From assembly GCA_963710755.1 (NCBI GenBank), contig CAVQBK010000001.1, positions 1 through 64,000 on the forward strand: a stretch of DNA of 64,000 bases. Reading direction: 5' to 3'. Below the pieces are notes generated by a model. That model saw only the letters and a program-made list of their open reading frames with translations, had not been told where the DNA came from and did no database searches. The position numbers and the translations under genes are program-made. Positions 12,001 to 20,494 of this stretch are shown piece by piece. How positions within the stretch are numbered: the first letter of the stretch is position 1; each line of letters begins with the position of its first letter. The DNA comes from an uncultured bacterium (GTDB lineage: Bacteria; Oederibacteriota; JAAXVQ01; JAUVAV01).

Positions 12001-15000
12001 CTTTGCCTTGGCGGCCAATCGCTTACTGGCCGTGGCCCAGGGATACATTAACGGCTTGGATTGGGGAGCGAATTTAAGGTACGCCATGATATCAAGCGTA
12101 GCCGAGGATCTGATGAACGGGATAGACGGTGGGCTGGCCACCACTGCTCTCTCGGATATTGCCAAAACCGCACTCCACATACTGGCCTCAGGCGCGGTGG
12201 CCTATTTATCGGCCCTGGCCAGGGGCATTACCGACGAGGGACAGTTAACCTCAGCCTTTTTGGGAGGCCTGGCTTCAGGGGTAATGGGCACCAAGGCGGA
12301 TGCAGGTAACATCACAGCCCAGATCATCAAAGTCATGGTGGTGGTGGGATTGAACACCGCGGCTGCCGCGGCCGAAGGCTTGAACGGCGATCAACTGCTG
12401 CTGGTGTCCGGCCTATCCCTGGCTGCCACGACCGCCGGTGCTCTCGGAGGGAATGGAAGTACGCAGAAAATGGCGGGTTTCAATGAAATTATTACAGCCA
12501 TCAGCGTGGCTTTTGGCAGCGCCATTCTGGGCCTGGCCGTGGCTGAAATCGTGGGAAAAGACAACGACAGCTTCCAGAGTCAAGCCATCACCGCCGCGGT
12601 GGTGCAGCTTGCAGTGTCAGCCGTGAGCAGCGTAATGAGCATGACCATTCCCGGTGCGGGTATTGTTAGCAATATTGCCTCCAGTACCTTTGGCCAGATG
12701 CTCAAGCAAGGCATGATGGAAACCATCCGTGATAACCACGAGATCAAGACCTACACCATCATCAGCGGACAAACTGCCAAGAGCAGCGATGAACAAATGA
12801 AAGATTTGAGTGAGAAGAACCGCATGGAAGTGGTTTTTGAGCAAACGATTATGAACGATGCCCTCGATCTTGGAGGGGCGCTGGGCAATATAGGCGGCAT
12901 CATGCTAAGTAACAGTCTAACAACTGGAAAGGAACTCTTTAATAATCTAACTGTTTACAATGATCAATTTAGTTATAAAGAAACGGATAGTCAAGCCTTA
13001 CGGCAAAGTGTAGAGAAAGCCGTAATGGAGGATGTGGGCGACCTAAGCCAGCAACTTACGATGAGCGATGAGAATCAGGACAGCAGTTATATGATGATCG
13101 GGGCCAAGGATGATAGCCTGGCCGCCATGGCGGGGATGAGCAAGGAAGCCATTGCCGAGAAGGTGGGCATCAAGCTGGAGATCGACCTGGGCAACCTGAA
13201 GGCCATGGCCGACCGCATGGGAGATTTTCTGAGCAAGCAGGGCATTGATTATGATGCGGTCATGAAAGGGGAAGTCAACGGCAAGGAGACGGCCCTGTTC
13301 TTCAAGGGCGACAAGCTGGTGGCCGCAGGCATGAAGAATGCCACGGGCCAGGAGGAACTGCGCACCTTCAACTTCAAACTCGGCGCTGACGGCAAGATCG
13401 CCGTAGCCAGCGGTAAGATCTTCCGCATGATCGGCAACCAATACAAGGAAGTGGGCGCCTTTGTGCTGGCCAAGCGGGGCAGCGAGGAATTCAAAGACGC
13501 CATGGCCGGAACCAAGGACCGCATCAACAATGCGGAAGTGGCGGCCAAACTGGACCAGGCCGACAGCGTCTACACGGAAACCGACAAGAGCGGCAACACC
13601 CGCCAGGTGTATATGGATGCCCAAGGCAAGGCCCTGGTGAGCGAATCCCTAATGTCCGACGGCAGCATGAAGATGCTGGTGTATGACTATGACAACCTGG
13701 CAAAAGGCGTGCTGGCCCAAGGCAGCATCTTTGTGGGTGAGAACGGCAAGTACAGCAGCCAAGCCAGCGGGACCTTTCAGATCAAACAGCAAACCGGCGT
13801 GGCAGGCCTTAACAATGCTGGTCAGGCCATTATCGAGGCTCTGGGTACTGGCCAAATGTCACGCACAGTCTACACGGAAACCATGAACAATGGCGCCACC
13901 CGCCAAATCAGCACCAATGCCAAAGGCCAGATCGAATACGTCTACAATAAAGCCGTAGACGGCAAGGAGCGTGTGGTGGTATTTGGAACAACGAATGCCA
14001 TTAACGTAGAGACAAGGGATTCCCTTGTCTCTACAAACATCGTCAATTTCAATGATCTATCTACCGACGACCAGAACCAGATCATGGCCGCTTTGCCGGT
14101 TATGAACAACCAGGACCCCTCGGCCGTGACCTCCAAGCTGGTCAACCTTCAGGACGCCATGAACATGGCCGCCCTGGCCAAACAAGCCCAAAGCATGGGC
14201 TTCCAGCTGGATGTGAAAGACGCCACCATCTTTGTCACCATCCCCGCCCTTACTTCCTCTCCCTCCAAGGGAGAGGATGGAGGTGAGGGATCCATCAATG
14301 TCCAAATATTAAACGTCTTTGAGGATAAAGACGGCGCCCTCATCATGCAAGGCCGCGTGGTGGAACAGGATGAAAATGGCATGCAAGCCGTGGGCGACGA
14401 AATCATCATTGCGCCTGCGAACAGCGCCTTTGCCAAGGATGCACTGGGCACGAATGGTGATCAAATCTCTGATAACGCTGCCACTATCCTCCTGCGTACC
14501 ACAACTTCCCCCTCTCCCTCCCAGGGAGAGGGCAGGGGTGAGGGTGAAATCACCACCGCCCAGGCCCTCGACGCCAACCGCCAGCCTCTGGGCGAACCGG
14601 TGACCATTAGCAAGGAAACCATGGATAAGGCCTTCGCCAATCTGAAAGACCAGGGTGATCATTCCGTAGGGGCGAATAATCATTCGCCCGTAATCAACGC
14701 CGTGAAATCAACAATCAAAAAATCCACCCAGGCAGCAGTTGGTGTGAAGGGAACGGCATTGAATTTGATCGACCAATCTATAAATAATCTGGCCATGTTC
14801 ATAGCCCAAAGTGAATCCGACGCAAATGACTGGAAGAATGCCGACTTAAGCGGTCTCGCGAAAGTGCTTAATGAAGCTGAAACCAAAGTAGGCGGTCTTG
14901 GGATGACGCCGCAGGCGGAATTATTAAAAGTCCTGGCCAACAAAATTGGTGTGGACCTTGGCGCCGGTGACTGGAGCCAGAAACTTCTCGCCAAACTCAG

Positions 15001-18000
15001 CAACAATCTGGGCAGTGAATACAAAAACCTGGAAGCCAAGGCCAGTATGACCAGCCAGGAGATTATCGGCATGGCCAAAGCGCTGTTGGGGCAATTAGTA
15101 TCGCTCCGGGAGCAAGTGAAACAAGGTGCAGTAAAAGGTATGGATCAAGTTAAAACGCTGCTGGGTGGCATTGAAAAACAAATTACTGACATCAAGAAAA
15201 CATGGGAAGTCAAGGCGTCTGTCCAGAAGTTGGACAGCCTGATGCCTTTAGTCGGAAACAGCGGCAAAGCCATCTTAGGAATGCTCAAAATAAGCCGTCT
15301 GCTGAACCAAACAGCTCATGATGGTGATGGCCTGGGATCAAAAATTCTGGCCCATATTAATCCCGGCAATATATTGGATATAAGTTTCAGTGTGTTGGAA
15401 AGCAGCAAGGTGGACTTTGGGACCAAGGTACTGGCAGCCACCGCCCTGGGTGCGGGCATAAGCTTGCAATTGATGGTGGTGAGCAGTGTGCCCCTTGCCG
15501 CTGTCTGGGCGTCGGAACCGGTAATTAAAAAAGGTGCTGATTTTGCGCTGGATAAAATGGGTGTAGAAGGTCCGGCTAAGGTTTTTTGGTCAAAGGTTAT
15601 CTGCAATGCCGCCTATTTCTTTGGCCTCGGTGGAGCCACCACCAGTTTGAAAAAAGGCTTCATTAATTGGATGAAGAATGGGTTGGCCAAAGGCGCTGTT
15701 ATGGGCGTCGTGGCCAAACTTGCCTTGGAACCTCTGGCTGAACTAGTCGGAATGCTTGGGAAAAATGATGCTCAAAAAGAGGCATTGAAATTAACCACCT
15801 TTGGGCTGTGTACCGCAGGGCTGGCCGGGGCCATGAAAGGCAAGTTAGGCGAAAAACTGGAAAAGCTTGGAGAGGAAAAAGAGCAGTTGTCTGAAACTGC
15901 GGGGGTAAAAAGCATCAAGACCAAGGCGGAAGTGAATCTGCTCCAAGCCAAGTCCAAAGCCATCATCCAGGAAGCAGAATATAAAAACGCTGCCAAAGAA
16001 ATAAAAACAGCGCGAAAAGCAATTGAACGTACGGCGTCCAGGGAAGAGATGAGCGCCAAAACCAAGCAAACTGTGGATGCTCTAAAAACCAAAGAAGCAT
16101 CCTTGGAAGGCAAGGCCAAAGACCTGAACCGCCAGGCCAAGGTGCTGGAACAGCGAGTGGCAGAGACAAAACAGCTTGAAAATAAAACGGAAATAAGGCA
16201 TGCTGAAAAACAAATCAACACCCTCAAAAAAGAAATCAATGCAGGAGAAAAAGTACTCAAGCAGGATTTGAAATCCGTCAAATCCCTGACCAAGGAGGCC
16301 AATCGTGTTCTGGCAAAAGAAAGTACCGCCATTAATCAACGACGAGGAAGTACCGGACAACTGGACCAAGGAACAAATACGGAGTTATTACTCAAAGAAG
16401 CTGAAGCAAATTTGGGAGCGGCAAAAGAGGTCAGTAGAGGAAATAATCTCGCTGCAGAACGAGTTGAAGGATTTAGAAACCAAATTGCAGAAGGTGGAGC
16501 GAGAATCGCAAGAGCAGTTGCAGAAGGTGGAGCGAGAATCGCAAGAGCAGTTGCAGAAGGTGGAGCGAGAATCGCAAGAGCAGTTGCAGAAATTGGAAAA
16601 GGAATCAAAAATACTGCAGGAAGATTATTCCAAACAACAGAAAGAGTCGGCAAAACTGGTAGCCAATTACGAGAGACTAGTGAGCGAGCTCAAGCGGCTA
16701 AAAAAGACCTAGGGCAAGCTCGGCTGGAACAACTTACCAATCAATTGGAAACTCAGATGATCAAAGGCGCTGAAAGTCTGGGTGATATAGATATTCCTAA
16801 ATTAGGGTATGAGAAGGAGAAGCAAAACTTTATTCTCAAAGGGCTGGGGACCTTGATCAAGGGTGACAATCCAACCGGTCAACTTCTCCGCTACGGTGCC
16901 ATCGGGGGAGCAGTCCTTCTGCTCACCCTCCCCGCCAACGCCGGAGCAGCCACGACCAATCCCGGCGGGGTAGTCAATGCCTCTTCCTTGACAACCGCGG
17001 GCTTGCAAGAGACTCAGGCAAAAATCAGCGGTAATACGGCAAATCAAAACTCAAATCCAATTCAAGCCGGAGTAAAGGCCGTGGTTGACAAACAACCAGC
17101 CCTTAATCTCCTGAAAGCGGTAGATAATAAGATCGAAACCCTCAAACCGCAGCTCCAAGCCGGATGGCAGACCTACACCACCAATTTATCGGAGATGAAA
17201 CATGCCTATGACCAAGCCAAAGGCTGGACTAAGGTAGAAATCACCACCGCCCAGGCCCTCGACGCCAACCGCCAACCCGTCGGTCAATCCGTCACCATCA
17301 CCAAAGCCGCGATGAACAAAGCCTTTGCGAATCTGAAGAACCAGTCCCGCGATACCGCAGGGAATGGTCGCGACCGTTCCCTACCAACCACCGTGAAATC
17401 CATGCTAACCCATGCTGTTGAAAAAACCAAGGCAGTGGCTAAGGATTCAATAGACAAAGCCACCAGTGTCCGTGGAACCACGGTAGCGGAAGCAAAAACC
17501 GCCTTGCTCGATAGTCTCGCTGAATTGCGGACCGCGGCCAGCGGCGTTTTGGATCAAGCCAATGCGATCAAAGCTGAGGGCGATAAAGAAGCAGGAGACC
17601 TGGCGGCGCAAGTGAGGACAGGCGTGGACAAAAGCGTGCAAGGCCTGCCGGGCGGCGCGCTGCTGGAAGCCACCGCCAAAGTTACACCGGTCAAACAATT
17701 ATTGGAGAAAGGATTGGAAAAATTAGGGAAGAAATTTGGTATAGATCTGAAAGCTGAATTGAAAAATGCCTCGCCAGAAGTGATTATTGCCAAGTTGGAA
17801 AGCATTATTGCCAAAGTAGACCAAATAACCGTCGCGATCAAAGCGCAAGTATCGCTGGGAGTGGCTGCAGTCCGTGCTTATGCCGTGCAAATCATCGGCT
17901 TGCGAAACGACCTGGTGGCAGCCGTGAGACAGTGGGATAAAGTGGACATGAAACTGGTCGTCCTGGGCAAAGCCGCAGGCCAGGTGGGCGAAGCCGGCAA

Positions 18001-20494
18001 AGGCGTGCTGGTGATGACCATGATGACGCATATGGTGGAAAAAGCGGCCAATGAAGGACACCTGGGCGCACAGATGCTGGCGGAAGTCAACCCCGCGGGC
18101 ATATTCAGCCTGATGGTGGATGTCATGCTGGAAAGCAAGATGAGCGCTGGTGGCAAAACCGGAGCGTTTTTTGCGGGCCTGATATTGTATGCCGCCTATA
18201 GTCTGACTGCCGCCAAAGTTCCGCTGGCGCTTGCGCTCATGCCTCTGATCCCCCTGGCGGAAAAAGGGCTGGTAGCATTGGGGGTGAGCCCGAAAGTCAG
18301 CAAATGGATCGCCAAAGGGCTATTCTACCTGGCATTCTCCGGAACCCTGTTAAAAGGCGGCGTGAGGAGTCTGTTCAGCGCCAAAACATTGCTGCCCGCG
18401 CTGGGCAGCATGGGGCGCAATACCATCCTCATGGGCGGATTGGGCGAAGGCCTGACCTTGGGCGGAAAACAACTAGGGGCGGCCTTGGGGCTCAAAGGCA
18501 AACAGCTGGACGCCTTTGCAGGCAGCTTTGGCTTATTGGGTACTACCCTGGGCATGGGGCTGCTTGCGGAAAGGCCAGTGGGAACCCGGGCCAAAGCGCT
18601 CGATTTTCAGCAAGCCAAAGTAAGGGCTGAAGCCGCGCCCAAAGAGCGCTTGCTGGAAATGCAAAATACGGAGCAAGCGACCAACACCACTAAAGCCGGC
18701 ATCAAAGCGCTTGACCATCTTGCGGAAAAAGGTATAAAGGATGCAAAGCAAACCCTGACCAAGCTGGAGAACGTAAAAAAGCAACTCGATCCCATGGCCG
18801 GCGAAAATCCGAAAGCCGCTAAACTGCAAGCTCAAGCGGAAAAAATCAGTGGCAGTATCAAGCAAAAACAGGGCGAGCTGGCCCGGCAGGAAGGCAAGCT
18901 CAATGATTTGCGGCAGCAATCCAAAGCGCTGCAGAGCGAGACCAACCAGCGCTGGCAGGAAGGTAAAATCAGTGAAGCAGAACTAATAAGCGTAAAGCAA
19001 AAACAAGCCGGACTGGAGAAAGCAAAGCTCCAAACCGAAAGGCAAGTGGAGCAAGCCCGGCAACAACTCAGCAAGATGGAGGCAAAAGCCGATGTTTTGG
19101 AACAAAAAACTGCCAAACTCAGTGAGCGACCCGGATCTGGACGAACTGGGAACCTTCAAGTTTCCCGAAAGCTGGACCAAGCAGGACGTTATAAACTACT
19201 ACTCGAAGAAGCTGCTCAAAATTTGGGAGAAGCAAAGGAAACTCGTAGAGAGGCAGGCGGAATTAGAAACAGAGTTACAAAACTTACAGAAGGACTCGGA
19301 AAGCAAGTTACAAAACTTACAGAAGGACTCGGAAAGCAAGTTACAAAACTTACAGAAGGACTCGGAAAGCAAGTTACAAATATTGCAGAACGATTGTTCA
19401 AATCTAGAACAAAAGTACTCGGTTCTAGTGAAGAAGTACGAGAGACTAGTCGCCGAGCTGAAATCACTAAACAAGAACTAGCGCCCATCAAAGCGCAAGA
19501 AGCTGCGATTAATAAGCAACTGGCCAAGTGGGAAACATTGGACGCGATTTCAAAAACTGAGATCGCGGACGTAAAATATGGGAAGGAAGGAGCCGAGGGA
19601 AAAGACGGGGGTAGAAACCCAATCGCCAATTTCCTGGCACCAATTGGCGAACATGTGCGCCAGTTATTACCACAAGCCGCGCCATATGGAGCCCTGGCCG
19701 GAGCAGTCCTGCTGCTTTCGCTGCCCGCCAAAGGCGGAGCCGCAACTATTTCCGCCGGTTCCACTAATCCCACGAATTTTAAAATATCTGTTCAACCGGC
19801 AATGGGAGTCGAGCAAAAACAATCGCTCGTAAATCCATCAGAAGAGCAGCATAATCTTGGTGATAAAATTAGCTCTGAAAAAGAAATAGCTGCCGAGAAG
19901 TCCTTGATCCAAAAAAAATATAACATCGCAATTATTGATGGGACAAACAAATGGACCGGGCATGAGGTGCAGCTGTTCAAAGAAACCATCAGCATTTTGC
20001 CCGAGGCCTATAGGAGCAAAGATACCCTGGGCTTTGCAAAGCGTGATTCGGTTTATATTGCTGAAGATAAATCTCAAATACCGCAAGTGTCGGGATACTA
20101 CTCGTTGAATGAAAAACAATTGCATATATTTGACTCTGCCTTAAGACCCTATGATTTTAAAACAGCGGACCAACAACTAAAAGGCACAATTGTGCATGAA
20201 CTGACCCACTCGATACAGTATCAGGACAGCAAGACCAAAGAGGTTTATGAAAATGCCTGGAATAATCCCCTGGTGCGGGATTACGCAAAAATTACCGGAT
20301 GGAATAGCGCAGCCAAATTCGACTATGGCGGAGATGTGAAAAAACTTCCCAGCGCCTATGCCGGTACCAGCGTAAAAGAAGACATAGCCGAAAGCGCGAT
20401 GTTTTATGTAATTGAACCTGCGCGGTTGAAAAAAGCAAGCCAGGAACGATATGACTTTTTAAAACGCCGGATCTTTAATGGGAAAGAATATTAA
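2..20494 (+). CDS. Giant YD/Rhs-like repeat protein with hydrophobic modules and a C-terminal Zn metallopeptidase (polymorphic-toxin-like); 5'-partial
   Basis: The frame of ORF 80..20494 has no stop back to base 2, so the true start is upstream of the window. Dozens of Y(N/D)xxG(Q/R) repeats; Gly/Ala/Leu-rich hydrophobic block at ~11900-12720; HELTH at 20195-20209 followed by YAGTSVKEDIAES. Confidence 0.85.
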   Translation, partial: TDQRGYTWQDFGEASLLFQQLDQHQALLNEQQAVVLDYTGYKQVAQDNWDELCKQMGAEIFSDAGHYLHMTADQVITDITSRLKGQTELSGEKEYDKDLALDQLNLAYDTLVKARNGLSDAIDDLIGAENDWRQAVKNFDGYLTSIQGDYGQGSNFLKTYTETLDGFLTSAGLSENTDGALKDAIGNFVTAMTTDWNVPGWPKDSLERNGQSAEALKDSIIGQTTTTATATAIKNQAQAIIDALGQVDGDIANLNTAINGRLGTLTTLIGNENSGAIKAVSDAESNFNNAKGDLDGPSVTIAKDYATQLQDARNALVTYTTLCSNIQTETDKLDNMGMIWTQYSHSTTLLGSTVNWYYAWGLGYTPSGQDTADLKLGTYTLEKAQVPASWDSPVDNRTLCENTLASYNEYKKLYPSYSESESKYQTALENYNTQFKKVYGTTRNNLYDGGFQQTWQEAKDNLTTLQDQQTAAEKAQQLLSSSDKLDSSIDEFNGLAQGLGSVVTKINNGLNQCLNGTDLDASTSLNQTARNLTDLQGNYPGIKEQYTTAYDNIYNAGTGKQVLYDQAASEWTAADATRAQYQTSLESLVHEQDNLNLATANLDTETTLADQINAGLNGPDGIYQQTLNRLADQTFTIDGTTFTLSNDQAVQLLAKGSVVLANQQTITRDEISQKAQVKININETKTSARIDLSYDTMGRLTGYKEITFTGQTIQYKTDPTQPWQQKQWLQLDEQIRRAILNADQTVQVGLPGSGSLQIQQALETKYNNQGQITSQTIQTSETTYSDDPDEDPYTHEYTVTTSQMTYDDKNQLSSYCRETDDPQENRVLLEEVVDEPLAYDDQGRMTSSRIKSTETINGVVTERVVTTRDMAYNSLDQLITYNRQTIEGGKVTYEKILSPMRYNQQNQMVFNHSAVIETEQKNGVPEISFDAIRDLPTTEDALKSLEDKAKVTETMMLDAAYNPRNQMTSMLRLTRESGKIILENMHDMAYDTSGRLTKSISDITEAGIVAADAGQKLDYKTMTVTTENLAWDNKKQVTEQKRTTVEGDKTTEEHLTNMTYFPDTGLLKSSFNTIAEHYRVSATETYDHTYTVQTDIQSYNSSKQISRQTQITTDGEKVTTATNAADIVPALPEYTYENGNVTSKTVLITETSLPYVDDNGNQVPAGAYTNSWTIADHDMTYDPFGRLESTIRDTIRQDDENIYYTREKNTYSYDAEGRAAETISSKKEYQAGINAGPGAITDAEKAAEYKTTVTWVPSSGYNTRGQMEHYTTISYNGETLTYDHQEYAWSALIADQKRAILNAEDQENKLGEVVSVTSMSDITYGGAVTQDLATVIQKAFINVTLDDLGHNDQEPAVRAGKIELFDSTFGTGQLVCNGTAITGLTDDQKIKFINQAVSHPASDTVMLTQGAQTYSLQDLSYSIHADKMDSWTATTTIEGPVAQDLSTIIQKAFSNVTLDDLGHNDQEPGVRAGKTELFDSTFGKGQLLHDGTVITGLTDDQKINFINQAVSHPAADTVMLTQGAQDYCLKDLSFSIRLNDISTTIRLSSAYNQIQQVEGYKEITMQGRGLILNGTFTKWSDLTDQRKQDIIAEWQSLQTKGVLSVSANRAALEDIGLLPNNFVTYTNMQNMTYTSDGQAKTWQSTTQELQVKSSDIYSARQPADPPVTTVALAVNRVTSSDRLDTVYNGNNKPVAVRETTTSAGGITTEGWTFYGYDDQSRATDVMHLTRTLSNDPTVAGSSWTVEQTHVVEFDTVRPEKNLYKKVKTLTLYDVTLTDAMLANVEGNKALTEIINKEDSIADCESKAYIEDSEHRSEIETQEFNYDYNDADAPKTTELIKITQDSDHNYNVERTDFFYLSGNGDPKPTNARVTKINNATNISTANNFFSYDFQNSSDQQITIEDTAYSYDAQGMLAGSRTLRTSPGGAVTAEASAFTYEGGQLTRVEKDIYQNLANENTSKPFTLAGAGQNLPNDFKLLQGNCPKSHEITTYDSYDAENRVLQSTATRTAVSGETSTDVTKYDYNGETGKISRIELTTREGDWWTTSIKDNIGYYTSGVNAGQMKSYRETITDSTATAKTTVNTVSDLRYDAYGRLIHQQTDAVETNPEGTHEYCVVLDVNGGNGFDQLNRMVNYTRTTTEKTGGKVVVEDIRQAYGTTDERLKSQDKDITETCTLSGEDLDHSYSTSSTYHYAQNPQVNEQNPHPWQMTGETVITTDGQRKTTEEITYSWNAQKQIAAKSSTVTLESGKATPGVWNVSSDHYTYAPASGLATAYRTTTTKAGKITTQDFTGIKYNQLGQVSEQDISYEERIVGKTAAEYLREWREEIRGQEYNAAGQLISQSITREERDLRTIENSSNYTYDAKGALTGKKTAVEEMDIAAPGSGQEDGDNHHLWYEDTISNQTCNGYGQVTGYTKTTRQQDAARHTVKTTVETITDVAYNNLEQITSQKDAYLETATNLHHSWTLETGFTYDDNHQVSTTTHTRIEGDKQTTETTSDMHYDCYGRVIQSTTIVNEKDKNDAQPLNYTYTVALTGQQYDGLNRVIGYTRTTTKEFEDSKVQTVIQTLTGCGYDSQDNMYYSHMVINDGISVVDTDTWNTFNALGQVESYRKAEWNETTKLLKAESGTGLTYDNQGRNNASVISTVETDLTQSSVPTIRVADFSTINGNNFEKRFTTTTVSTSYNTLGQVSGFDRTTEESGKITRELAVASYHYDRYGRLADSSITITEKDKGQTVNGTILNHTTTVAMSAITYNGNQQMTAYTRTTTDGQSVLIEKAVEVAYDDKGYVSGLTMNVTETDTKPDNDPNKLKHNYRYTLSNTLNSYGWVIGYTKTTNDQGRKTIEAVDGINDPQTYDKYGRLQTYTKTTTERGFDPDTLQTFAKGTVVTETVINGPIHYDGLGRITNIQVSRETTDEETGGNKLHLYETVTTENKAGKDKNNHDIAAYNLLGQLAYSERTTKSYSYNGAVLVEGETKTEKTSYTYDANGRIKSQYSRITENGTTTDRGSKEVAYKDNANQDVSYDVNYGSLDVSYTVETKDITYGHDDNRMATFTRITDKDGRRTTEAVNQTWSSGQVAGQTTVYTDTTTGNDTSTLSKTWTVSRSRISYNNLDQVLGETRLTTIAEADTSKNTETQETVSSNTYDQAGRLLTSSSYFVERGGYTEVGSLFHTWNQAITNSDYNNLGQAGSKIIVTSGDNGAPDKVSTLDQHDILYNTKGQVLAYTQINREKNAAGTALALDTTNEIIRDWTVYNSLGQVTQYKESQRKVTLTDEELGILKNLGLTEADLESYVDQAGNAIVNLKLSDLYADGKLENIDPGQNIYNLLEKIIKNAITTAVPDALGAGSKAKVIDMAVKSFMSRFDTNDITVKFDAVKDEQNKPIELPLTSLTGRDLLFYLIGASWDAYTLGPDSENGEQTVSSMSLDTLCGDARIDANDGLGDKTLRTVIQDMLKASFLDLGANESDAVALAAQAVVAMEWKTENGDSLMGMTVQEINNLLDDETGTPQIEDQDGKSVANYNILLLINNKIFSQADKALLDDIYHNAVKNMNALKTSSGQPMGDQSFGALISQLTGAGNDLVSHINNVINADFVNFKANSTINIVVENQTYDNQDRLVMQRENAVWHSIGGGNIPGLDSGWKNGDAAVTTTYAYYGNSNQRQAQQVQVTGSGLNENADINTAYYYTEVAADRQNPNAASWTLIPEHLEAPREHLPENITDGSIVFSKDEYVVVNGNGDIEIKPIYFMAKQRGIDSLYIENNISYNSFNQQVHSWSTTEQVAQRTEYFYKTAGENKTPDTIVVTARVGTITENRTTDFNRLGQALTTVSDSYSTDINRTNVYTITTNMTYSADGSRTGAQVTTSNLYHPIQENLNEEYHNLKNIMLQAVSNGGKQTLRLGDKAQYSANRSISGNFSQVYNNLAAENDEFKYTNGSTIWNSYKYDIFGNIDNLATQRSSHGTSWQGEFEGAGLSPIGKLLNDIITVVRIVLNVLSNYIPVLKPFALAANRLLAVAQGYINGLDWGANLRYAMISSVAEDLMNGIDGGLATTALSDIAKTALHILASGAVAYLSALARGITDEGQLTSAFLGGLASGVMGTKADAGNITAQIIKVMVVVGLNTAAAAAEGLNGDQLLLVSGLSLAATTAGALGGNGSTQKMAGFNEIITAISVAFGSAILGLAVAEIVGKDNDSFQSQAITAAVVQLAVSAVSSVMSMTIPGAGIVSNIASSTFGQMLKQGMMETIRDNHEIKTYTIISGQTAKSSDEQMKDLSEKNRMEVVFEQTIMNDALDLGGALGNIGGIMLSNSLTTGKELFNNLTVYNDQFSYKETDSQALRQSVEKAVMEDVGDLSQQLTMSDENQDSSYMMIGAKDDSLAAMAGMSKEAIAEKVGIKLEIDLGNLKAMADRMGDFLSKQGIDYDAVMKGEVNGKETALFFKGDKLVAAGMKNATGQEELRTFNFKLGADGKIAVASGKIFRMIGNQYKEVGAFVLAKRGSEEFKDAMAGTKDRINNAEVAAKLDQADSVYTETDKSGNTRQVYMDAQGKALVSESLMSDGSMKMLVYDYDNLAKGVLAQGSIFVGENGKYSSQASGTFQIKQQTGVAGLNNAGQAIIEALGTGQMSRTVYTETMNNGATRQISTNAKGQIEYVYNKAVDGKERVVVFGTTNAINVETRDSLVSTNIVNFNDLSTDDQNQIMAALPVMNNQDPSAVTSKLVNLQDAMNMAALAKQAQSMGFQLDVKDATIFVTIPALTSSPSKGEDGGEGSINVQILNVFEDKDGALIMQGRVVEQDENGMQAVGDEIIIAPANSAFAKDALGTNGDQISDNAATILLRTTTSPSPSQGEGRGEGEITTAQALDANRQPLGEPVTISKETMDKAFANLKDQGDHSVGANNHSPVINAVKSTIKKSTQAAVGVKGTALNLIDQSINNLAMFIAQSESDANDWKNADLSGLAKVLNEAETKVGGLGMTPQAELLKVLANKIGVDLGAGDWSQKLLAKLSNNLGSEYKNLEAKASMTSQEIIGMAKALLGQLVSLREQVKQGAVKGMDQVKTLLGGIEKQITDIKKTWEVKASVQKLDSLMPLVGNSGKAILGMLKISRLLNQTAHDGDGLGSKILAHINPGNILDISFSVLESSKVDFGTKVLAATALGAGISLQLMVVSSVPLAAVWASEPVIKKGADFALDKMGVEGPAKVFWSKVICNAAYFFGLGGATTSLKKGFINWMKNGLAKGAVMGVVAKLALEPLAELVGMLGKNDAQKEALKLTTFGLCTAGLAGAMKGKLGEKLEKLGEEKEQLSETAGVKSIKTKAEVNLLQAKSKAIIQEAEYKNAAKEIKTARKAIERTASREEMSAKTKQTVDALKTKEASLEGKAKDLNRQAKVLEQRVAETKQLENKTEIRHAEKQINTLKKEINAGEKVLKQDLKSVKSLTKEANRVLAKESTAINQRRGSTGQLDQGTNTELLLKEAEANLGAAKEVSRGNNLAAERVEGFRNQIAEGGARIARAVAEGGARIARAVAEGGARIARAVAEIGKGIKNTAGRLFQTTERVGKTGSQLRETSERAQAAKKDLGQARLEQLTNQLETQMIKGAESLGDIDIPKLGYEKEKQNFILKGLGTLIKGDNPTGQLLRYGAIGGAVLLLTLPANAGAATTNPGGVVNASSLTTAGLQETQAKISGNTANQNSNPIQAGVKAVVDKQPALNLLKAVDNKIETLKPQLQAGWQTYTTNLSEMKHAYDQAKGWTKVEITTAQALDANRQPVGQSVTITKAAMNKAFANLKNQSRDTAGNGRDRSLPTTVKSMLTHAVEKTKAVAKDSIDKATSVRGTTVAEAKTALLDSLAELRTAASGVLDQANAIKAEGDKEAGDLAAQVRTGVDKSVQGLPGGALLEATAKVTPVKQLLEKGLEKLGKKFGIDLKAELKNASPEVIIAKLESIIAKVDQITVAIKAQVSLGVAAVRAYAVQIIGLRNDLVAAVRQWDKVDMKLVVLGKAAGQVGEAGKGVLVMTMMTHMVEKAANEGHLGAQMLAEVNPAGIFSLMVDVMLESKMSAGGKTGAFFAGLILYAAYSLTAAKVPLALALMPLIPLAEKGLVALGVSPKVSKWIAKGLFYLAFSGTLLKGGVRSLFSAKTLLPALGSMGRNTILMGGLGEGLTLGGKQLGAALGLKGKQLDAFAGSFGLLGTTLGMGLLAERPVGTRAKALDFQQAKVRAEAAPKERLLEMQNTEQATNTTKAGIKALDHLAEKGIKDAKQTLTKLENVKKQLDPMAGENPKAAKLQAQAEKISGSIKQKQGELARQEGKLNDLRQQSKALQSETNQRWQEGKISEAELISVKQKQAGLEKAKLQTERQVEQARQQLSKMEAKADVLEQKTAKLSERPGSGRTGNLQVSRKLDQAGRYKLLLEEAAQNLGEAKETRREAGGIRNRVTKLTEGLGKQVTKLTEGLGKQVTKLTEGLGKQVTNIAERLFKSRTKVLGSSEEVRETSRRAEITKQELAPIKAQEAAINKQLAKWETLDAISKTEIADVKYGKEGAEGKDGGRNPIANFLAPIGEHVRQLLPQAAPYGALAGAVLLLSLPAKGGAATISAGSTNPTNFKISVQPAMGVEQKQSLVNPSEEQHNLGDKISSEKEIAAEKSLIQKKYNIAIIDGTNKWTGHEVQLFKETISILPEAYRSKDTLGFAKRDSVYIAEDKSQIPQVSGYYSLNEKQLHIFDSALRPYDFKTADQQLKGTIVHELTHSIQYQDSKTKEVYENAWNNPLVRDYAKITGWNSAAKFDYGGDVKKLPSAYAGTSVKEDIAESAMFYVIEPARLKKASQERYDFLKRRIFNGKEY
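3982..4610 (+). repeat. Tandem duplication of a ~97-aa insert domain (period 339 bp) in the YD-repeat region
   Basis: QDLxTxIQKAFxNVTLDDLGHNDQEP...LTQGAQxYxLxDLSxSI occurs twice with high DNA identity. Confidence 0.9.
14006..14034. repeat. REP-like palindrome (GTAGAGACAAGG type), in frame within the giant gene
   Basis: GTAGAGACAAGGGA-T-TCCCTTGTCTCTAC with perfect 14-bp arms; near-identical to the copies at 23396 and 24784. Confidence 0.85.
14255..14289. repeat. REP-like palindrome (CCTCTCCC/GGGAGAGG...GGTGAGGG type), in frame
   Basis: TCCTCTCCCT-CCA-AGGGAGAGGA-TGGAGGTGAGGG; encodes SSPSKGEDGGEG. Confidence 0.75.
14510..14544. repeat. REP-like palindrome (CCCTCTCCC/GGGAGAGGG...GGTGAGGG type), in frame
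   Basis: CCCTCTCCCT-CCC-AGGGAGAGGG-CAGGGGTGAGGG; encodes PSPSQGEGRGEG. Confidence 0.8.
14666..14692. repeat. REP-like palindrome (GTAGGGGCGAAT type), in frame
   Basis: GTAG-GGGCGAAT-AATC-ATTCGCCC-GTA; encodes VGANNHSPV. Confidence 0.8.
16305..16712 (+). CDS. Nested +1-frame coiled-coil protein (135 aa) inside the giant gene, copy A
   Basis: AAGGAGG at 16292-16298 sits 6 nt before GTG; paralog of 19092..19481 (MFWxKK...WTK...YYSKKL..IWE.Q...YERLV.ELK.L.K.*). Confidence 0.7.
   Translation: MFWQKKVPPLINDEEVPDNWTKEQIRSYYSKKLKQIWERQKRSVEEIISLQNELKDLETKLQKVERESQEQLQKVERESQEQLQKVERESQEQLQKLEKESKILQEDYSKQQKESAKLVANYERLVSELKRLKKT
16485..16591 (+). repeat. Perfect 33-bp tandem repeat x3.2
   Basis: Unit TTGCAGAAGGTGGAGCGAGAATCGCAAGAGCAG. 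Confidence 0.95.
17357..17384. repeat. REP-like palindrome (GTAGGGAACGGTCGCGACC type on the - strand), in frame
   Basis: GCAGGGAATGGTCGCGACCGTTCCCTAC, a near-perfect palindrome; encodes AGNGRDRSL. Confidence 0.8.
19092..19481 (+). CDS. Nested +1-frame coiled-coil protein (129 aa) inside the giant gene, copy B
   Basis: GGAGG at 19078-19082 sits 9 nt before ATG; paralog of 16305..16712 with an equivalent TAG stop. Confidence 0.7.
   Translation: MFWNKKLPNSVSDPDLDELGTFKFPESWTKQDVINYYSKKLLKIWEKQRKLVERQAELETELQNLQKDSESKLQNLQKDSESKLQNLQKDSESKLQILQNDCSNLEQKYSVLVKKYERLVAELKSLNKN
19273..19380 (+). repeat. Perfect 33-bp tandem repeat x3.3
   Basis: Unit AGTTACAAAACTTACAGAAGGACTCGGAAAGCA. Confidence 0.95.

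Follow-up and report, generated by a model that had tools for sequence, protein, structure and literature searches.

The 64,000-nucleotide stretch of DNA analysed here (the window; positions 1 to 64,000 of contig CAVQBK010000001.1 from an uncultured bacterium of the Oederibacteriota) contains a giant open reading frame (ORF) with two tandemly duplicated modules, A and B. Near the start of each module lies a short palindrome of the repetitive extragenic palindromic (REP) type, and the two palindromes are different. An earlier note on this DNA had suggested that one REP was swapped for another in place, or that the site is a hotspot for a REP-associated tyrosine transposase (RAYT). We compared the site within the genome of the window (G000), in its relatives (the other G numbers; 41 genomes were searched in all) and in contigs from public sequencing runs (X1 to X4). 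The source sample may be among these runs, and the stretches that their contigs leave uncovered are uninformative. Coordinates are collected in Table 1.

Table 1. Position of the giant ORF and of the features inside it (window coordinates).
Feature	Position	Strand	Remarks
Giant ORF, 6830 aa	2-20494	+	Open at the contig 5' end; contains all features below
Third in-frame GTAG palindrome, GTAGAGACAAGGGATTCCCTTGTCTCTAC, reading VETRDSLVST	14006-14034	+	Perfect 14-nt arms; z = -8.86
REP-C no. 1, in-frame hairpin repeat CCCTCTCCC...GGGAGAGGG	14243-14289	+	14 codons more than in the orthologs of G001 and G005
REP-C no. 2, SPSPSQGEGRGEG	14508-14545	+	Abuts the 5' side of module A; about 12-13 codons more than in orthologs
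Module A of the tandem duplication, unit 2691 nt	14546-17236	+	From repeat comparison
38 nt identical to 17237-17274	14546-14583	+	Public contigs join across
REP A, GTAGGGGCGAATAATCATTCGCCC, 8 codons VGANNHSP	14666-14689	+	The palindrome of the earlier note extends to 14692 (+GTA)
Restart of A/B homology, CCGTGAAATC	14700-14709; counterpart 17391-17400	+	From sequence comparison
Module B	17237-20030	+	End approximate, from repeat pairs spaced 2769-2811
REP B, GCAGGGAATGGTCGCGACCGTTCCCTAC, reading AGNGRDRSL	17357-17384	+	2/28 mismatches to the family consensus GTAGGGAACGGTCGCGACCGTTCCCTAC

The proteins encoded by modules A and B are 31% identical over 295 aa. At the DNA level, 14531-14653 and 17222-17344 match at 76% (repeat family D5), and the 38-nt identity at the two module starts is probably a recent conversion tract. 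The giant protein, searched in three pieces, matched no Pfam family at E<=0.01, and Rfam covariance models gave 0 matches at the gathering score between 13000 and 21000 of the window. Orthologs of the gene are present in G001, which is of the same genus, and in G005, which is of another genus and has two paralogs. A search of genome contigs for more orthologs returned only three loci already known, and a search of metagenome contigs returned none. A protein search at longer lengths gave one 735-aa fragment that stops short of the palindrome site. A DNA-pattern scan of metagenome contigs gave four loci, all of which were unrelated chance matches.

We found that two different members of repeated palindrome families lie in frame at an identical junction of the two modules. 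Both palindromes start at offset +120 from the module start (14666 and 17357), and the positions and letters given for them in the earlier note were correct. A begins with GTAG; B in the window begins with GCAG and its family consensus with GTAG. Their inner stems are unrelated, as had been proposed: 2 of 16 inner positions match (manual count). A forms an 8-bp stem with a 4-nt loop, and B is a 28-nt palindrome with two imperfect pairs. As folded DNA, A has z = -4.69 and none of 200 shuffled sequences folds equally well; the values for B are z = -2.46 and 5 of 200. The peptides in the giant frame are VGANNHSPV for A and AGNGRDRSL for B. Two parts of the earlier description held less completely. 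Homology was said to resume at offset +156; GTGAAATC does occur at 14702 and 17393, but the restart is weak and consists only of CCGTGAAATC (a V-K-S motif) and scattered matches. Length and frame were said to be preserved; each palindrome begins at a codon boundary of the ORF and 36 nt are replaced in both modules, but the palindromes themselves are unequal, 24 nt for A and 28 nt for B. A and B are singletons by a test for REP doublets forming hairpins (REPINs), with the nearest palindromes at least 120 nt away and of other families.

Contigs from public runs match both stretches without differences, X3 over 14543-14693 and X1 over 17296-17600. In run X2, A differs at 14672 and 14687 (G>A and C>A). 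These are mutually paired stem positions, and the two changes are not compensatory.

Both A and B are copies of GTAG-tagged REP elements, that is, of short hairpin repeats that are normally extragenic. We counted each family genome-wide, using the reversed pattern as a control, which gave 0 for A and for the B family. The 28-mer GTAGGGAACGGTCGCGACCGTTCCCTAC, with up to two mismatches, is present at 10 sites in G000, 21 in G001, 58 in G005, 44 in G003 and 2 in G008, and the copies in G000 are mostly outside long open frames. The 24-mer of A has three exact copies in G000, one further copy with two mismatches, and three sites in G003, which is of a different genus. All three exact copies in G000 are inside giant ORFs and read VGANNHSP; the other two are at C13:529526 and C13:530243, in one further giant ORF. 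The possibility raised earlier, that neither palindrome is repeated elsewhere, thus does not hold for G000, where both are. For the superfamily pattern GTAGGG-N16-CCCTAC we counted 18 copies in G000 and 5-137 in each of 14 further genomes (control 0-2), so that 15 of the 41 related genomes searched have at least five. Different genera and families share the same subfamilies. Full-length copies number 39 in G000, and G005 has 137 with exact ends; the number in G000 is below the >100 copies given as usual for REP families (PMC2817692).

Several subfamilies in G005 are one compensatory pair apart (GCAACC/GGTTGC, GCGACC/GGTCGC and GCACCC/GGGTGC). Copies of GTAGGGGC(A/G)(A/C)CCCTTGCGG... are within about 100 nt of the contig end in at least 10 contigs of G005, indicating that these repeats break the assembly.

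Aligning the homologous modules of relatives, occupant by occupant, revealed that the site has been reused. With a slash at the junction, module A of G000 reads D-Q-G-D-H-S/V-G-A and holds the A subfamily, and module B reads N-Q-S-R-D-T/A-G-N and holds the B subfamily. The G005 ortholog reads D-Q-G-D-K-T/V-G-A and holds GTAGGGGCAACCCTTGCGGTTGCCC, a third subfamily, which has 5 exact copies and about 29 compensatory variants in G005. The G001 ortholog has no GTAG palindrome at this site, just a weak 7-bp hairpin, found by eye. The public contigs include one from X1 with G001-type sequence, one from X2 with A carrying two substitutions, and one from X4 (264 nt, possibly chimeric) in which the upstream region is joined to a B-like module start with a B-type copy that has three substitutions. 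Together with the orthologs, these contigs indicate that occupants are stable among close strains and differ at the genus level.

Contigs from X1 and X4 jump from 14546 to 17238 and from 14588 to 17280 onto a B-like module start, omitting 2691 nt. Either a strain lacks module A or the assembly was led across by the exact 38-nt repeat. In G001, too, the ortholog resembles module B in the segment at the module start.

A second giant-protein family showed the same kind of junction. The ORF on C13 that carries the other two exact copies of A is 3413 aa long and starts with a domain of about 450 aa (C13:529211-530560; L038/L039). This domain heads 31 giant ORFs in G000, and each of 10 relatives of the same family yields 6-43 matches to it. 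We compared 12 sequences, that of G000 and the best match of each of the 10 relatives, with two for G005. At the junction F-I-x-x/, G000, the G001 ortholog and one G005 sequence (L041) have three different GTAG palindromes. A fourth palindrome, common to another G005 sequence (L050) and to G004 (L043), is three codons upstream, and in G002 (L042) a related palindrome is one nucleotide past F-I, in a different frame. No such insert was seen in the protein alignment of the remaining six sequences, whose DNA was not scanned. Among 30 paralogs of the N-terminal domain in G000 we found no recurrent REP columns; two of the paralogs have three GTAG REPs between them, at three different columns. In addition, the A copy at site 1 of the C13 ORF is absent from the G001 ortholog, indicating that A inserted de novo at least once.

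By open-frame count the superfamily is mostly extragenic in G000. Of its 39 full-length copies, 31 are in the roughly 30% of the genome that no open frame of at least 300 aa covers, two are in frames of 300-1999 aa (about 60%), and six are in frames of at least 2000 aa (10.2%). Counting the three A copies and the element at 14006, there are ten copies in giant ORFs. The giant ORFs of G000 thus nearly match intergenic DNA in REP density. The reading is GTA-first in 10 of 12 in-ORF copies, and one of the other two is directly after a stop codon. Part of this bias is explained by the frame one base later, in which GTAG would supply a TAG stop codon. Another giant ORF of G000 (2936 aa, on C5) has three in-frame copies of GTAGAGACAAGGCATGCCTTGTCTCTAC, at 2189, 2423 and 7064, each reading VETRHALSL.

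The giant gene has further palindromes. A region of about 900 nt has five in-frame palindromes in G000 and six in G005, at no fewer than six linkers; those of G005 are all GTAG palindromes, span about 800 nt and use other linkers. One of the six is length-neutral: VGARHALP stands in place of LGEPVTIS in G000 and LGKAVTIT in G001. Elements are 24-29 nt long, and REP-C is 38-47 nt. REP-C at 14508-14545 is a multi-copy repeat that is widespread and may occur in several organisms; many public contigs end or diverge at it, and summed depth is raised there. The G001 ortholog has no palindrome at the linker of the element at 14006-14034.

We also looked at orthologous intergenic sites. Seven G000 REP regions were taken and three were compared with five relatives; two of these were readable and the third was at a contig end. 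At both readable sites (C1:225946 and C13:391062), where G000 has B REPs, G001 has different elements (L058 on C26 and L063 on C83). These are about 200-300 nt long and have their own inverted repeats and no GTAG palindrome, and two sites are too few for a rate.

How did different REPs come to share one junction? We consider in-place turnover of an anciently occupied REP site an evenly balanced proposition, and the best of the explanations considered here. Most likely, the linker was occupied by a REP before the duplication that gave modules A and B and before the split from the genus of G005. The occupant would later have been replaced by members of other subfamilies, with no change to the left junction, to the length or to the frame. 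This reading is supported by the identical junction in two protein families, the equal 36 nt in modules A and B, and the length-neutral VGARHALP in G005. REPs would survive in the giant gene because the only frame of GTAG that avoids TAG gives a harmless peptide of 8-9 residues, V-G-x5-P-L, and because the giant ORFs of G000 tolerate REPs almost as intergenic DNA does. The turnover would amount to targeted sequence exchange within a coding gene, as the earlier note had suggested.

For the replacement step we favor copy-choice, in which templates would be switched between REP hairpins with common GTAGGG and CCCTAC ends. Template-switch correction at quasi-palindromes is a length-preserving rewrite, in which the other hairpin arm or another template is copied during replication. 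The cases known to us are intramolecular; the switching proposed here would instead take place between distant REP copies.

Several observations weigh against turnover in place. Copies of A lack the 3' CTAC, so that A and B are unequal as cassettes, and the occupant of the main site in G001 is not a GTAG palindrome. The other REPs of the giant gene are clean net insertions, of +14, +12-13 and +7 codons. In the second protein family, the linker has REPs at three further junctions, all within about 9 nt and one in a different frame, and the occupants in G000 and G001 are 17/24 identical (manual count), a pair that drift would fit. The alignment inside the variable linker is uncertain. Three independent hits on one junction would occur by chance in about 1-2% of cases (counting codon boundaries only, in a linker of about 8 codons), and the case was picked post hoc. 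The gene is known from only three genomes and a few short public contigs, and neither an empty-site allele nor a hybrid REP was seen in them. Finally, the Y1 survey described below found no enzyme linked to the REP elements.

It is possible, though in our view unlikely, that the shared junction instead reflects independent insertions at a hotspot. The linker might be permissive, with in-frame GTA-first junctions the only ones to survive, or there might be a local target preference, or both. Independent insertions into one linker do occur, as the scattered junctions of the second family indicate: REPs entered its linker at four junctions, which are spread over about 9 nt and two frames. The clean insertions relative to orthologs, the density of palindromes across the linkers of G000 and G005, and the de novo insertion of A at site 1 of the C13 ORF are also what this explanation expects. 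In addition, a C precedes GTAG in 10 of 16 intragenic copies. This recalls the requirement for a 3' C in strand transfer by TnpA-REP (PMC8266576), but may reflect composition at third codon positions. Independent insertion does not readily explain why each of two unrelated proteins has an identical junction in three instances, and the flanks of the copies show no conserved motif. Moreover, a 28-nt unit alone cannot enter in frame, yet A and B replace exactly 36 nt. Of the two proposals of the earlier note, a swap in place stands at about even odds and an insertion hotspot at lower odds, the latter without support for the link to a RAYT.

A more general version of turnover is that REPs with shared GTAGGG and CCCTAC feet are exchangeable cassettes, overwritten at a fixed junction with length and frame preserved, by template switching or by a Y1 enzyme. 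We regard this as rather improbable.

The exchange might also be enzymatic. In the model of the earlier note, a Y1 transposase of the HUH type, RAYT-like or flanked by terminal inverted repeats (TIRs), would cut the GTAG foot of a donor and of a resident REP and swap the hairpins. This model would fit the left junction that is kept, which is directly 5' of GTAG, and TnpA-REP does cut and rejoin single-stranded REPs in vitro (PMC8266576). A search of G000 with PF01797 (Y1_Tnp) gave seven intact genes of about 326-341 aa and one fragment. The link to a RAYT was not supported. All seven genes are flanked by long TIRs and none is bordered by GTAG palindromes. They belong to an insertion sequence (IS)-like multi-copy element with a Y1 gene of about 330 aa (C2:1091-2068, C13:518981-519958 and five more; L001-L007). 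Its TIRs begin GGGGACGGTC..., a start that resembles the B stem GGGAACGGTC. Other work has also described Y1 genes that are bordered by TIRs and not by REPs (PMC3733652).

A second Y1 type, of about 215 aa, is present in G001, G003, G005 and a sister family, and was not found in G000. A REPtron, that is, a RAYT gene flanked by REPs, was not seen; the loci of the shorter type in relatives have at most one REP, 614 nt away. Among the 15 genomes with at least five REPs, 12 have the type of about 330 aa, six have that of about 215 aa, and all 15 have one or the other. Among the 26 other genomes the numbers are five, three and seven. These genomes are kin and not independent, and no statistical test was applied. 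The difference between 15 of 15 and 7 of 26 is in favor of an enzyme. In contrast, neither type on its own tracks REP abundance across the 41 genomes. G006 and G011 have the shorter type but 0 REPs, and in G008, with 101 REPs, the shorter type was not found. The longer type was not found in three REP genomes and is present in five without REPs. Taken together, enzymatic exchange of the hairpins appears improbable, and more so than the general cassette proposal.

We think it very improbable that the occupants arose from a single ancestral hairpin by gradual compensatory drift, with no exchange. Drift would fit the G005 subfamilies that are separated by single compensatory pairs, and the resemblance of the G000 and G001 occupants in the second family. 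At the main site, however, the flanks are 76% identical and the inner stems agree at 2/16 positions. Each occupant also equals the consensus of a multi-copy repeat that is present elsewhere and in other genera. We give hardly any credence to hairpins by chance or to an artefact of assembly: the folding of B is modest and public contigs break at repeats, one of them joining 14546 to 17238, but the family counts stand against controls of 0, independent contigs are identical over both sites, and run X1 has contigs from the interior of both modules.

In-frame palindromes are not without precedent. In the Rickettsia palindromic elements (RPEs), palindromic repeats are in frame in protein genes and tolerated as an extra peptide; RPE-1 is about 100-150 bp. 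The elements described here share this in-frame behavior, which is like that of miniature inverted-repeat transposable elements, yet they are 24-29 nt long with GTAG heads (38-47 nt for REP-C) and are not members of the RPEs. RPE-4 and RPE-6 are of the CGTC type (PMC3733652).

The closest relatives are the GTAG REPs described by Di Nocera, De Gregorio and Rocco (2013, PMC3733652). These are likewise short GTAG-tagged palindromes of many families, mostly intergenic, with some inside ORFs, where the extra residues were suggested to sit in flexible linkers. Different REPs were reported there at about the same site of recB in two Xanthomonas species. The present case differs from those in its host, an uncultured candidate-division lineage, in its giant ORFs with about the REP density of intergenic DNA, and in one codon junction common to three subfamilies across paralogous modules and genera, in two protein families. 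The supplementary table of intragenic REPs in that paper may hold similar cases. Different REP classes at orthologous positions of related strains have been called an orthoswitch, with the mechanism stated to be unknown (Nunvar et al. 2013, PMC3686654). This is a precedent for our sites; however, the orthoswitch REPs flank RAYT genes in Pseudomonas and Stenotrophomonas, and the sites described here are inside a coding frame with no adjacent RAYT. A hairpin together with GTAG is the recognition unit of TnpA-REP, and cleavage in E. coli is between C and T near the REP (Corneloup et al. 2021, PMC8266576). According to the available text of that paper, perfect palindromic REPs are found in group 3 and REP transposition in vivo has not been reported. 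The strand transfer of TnpA-REP and of other HUH chemistry (IS200-IS605) could in principle exchange hairpins; a cognate enzyme was not found in our survey. Listings of the literature on FCPU426 and on in-frame or intragenic REPs contain no mention of REPs in the host lineage. What appears to be new is the lineage, the giant ORFs as sinks of REPs, and the occupancy of the same junction, at the level of the codon, by three subfamilies.

Because the reading frame exposes each junction, length change and frame shift under selection, giant ORFs are a natural record of REP turnover. If there is true exchange, the left cut directly 5' of GTAG and the conserved length constrain its mechanism. If there is not, the gene is still a clear case of REPs inside a gene, from a phylum about which little is known and in which giant genes bear mobile hairpins about as intergenic DNA does. 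If the REPs are exchangeable cassettes, the giant ORFs would be a readable natural substrate for the orthoswitch and a source of linker-peptide diversity in a giant-protein family with 31 members.

Two other features of the giant protein are outside the palindrome sites. Its C-terminal end (window about 20200-20494) has an H-E-x-x-H motif (IVHELTHS) without a Pfam match, and may be a metallopeptidase-like domain. There are also 33-nt in-frame tandem repeats, of 3-4 copies, at 16452-16606 and 19254-19385. Their places in the two modules correspond, but their sequences are unrelated; they encode 11-aa units, for example AEGGARIARAV and TKLTEGLGKQV.

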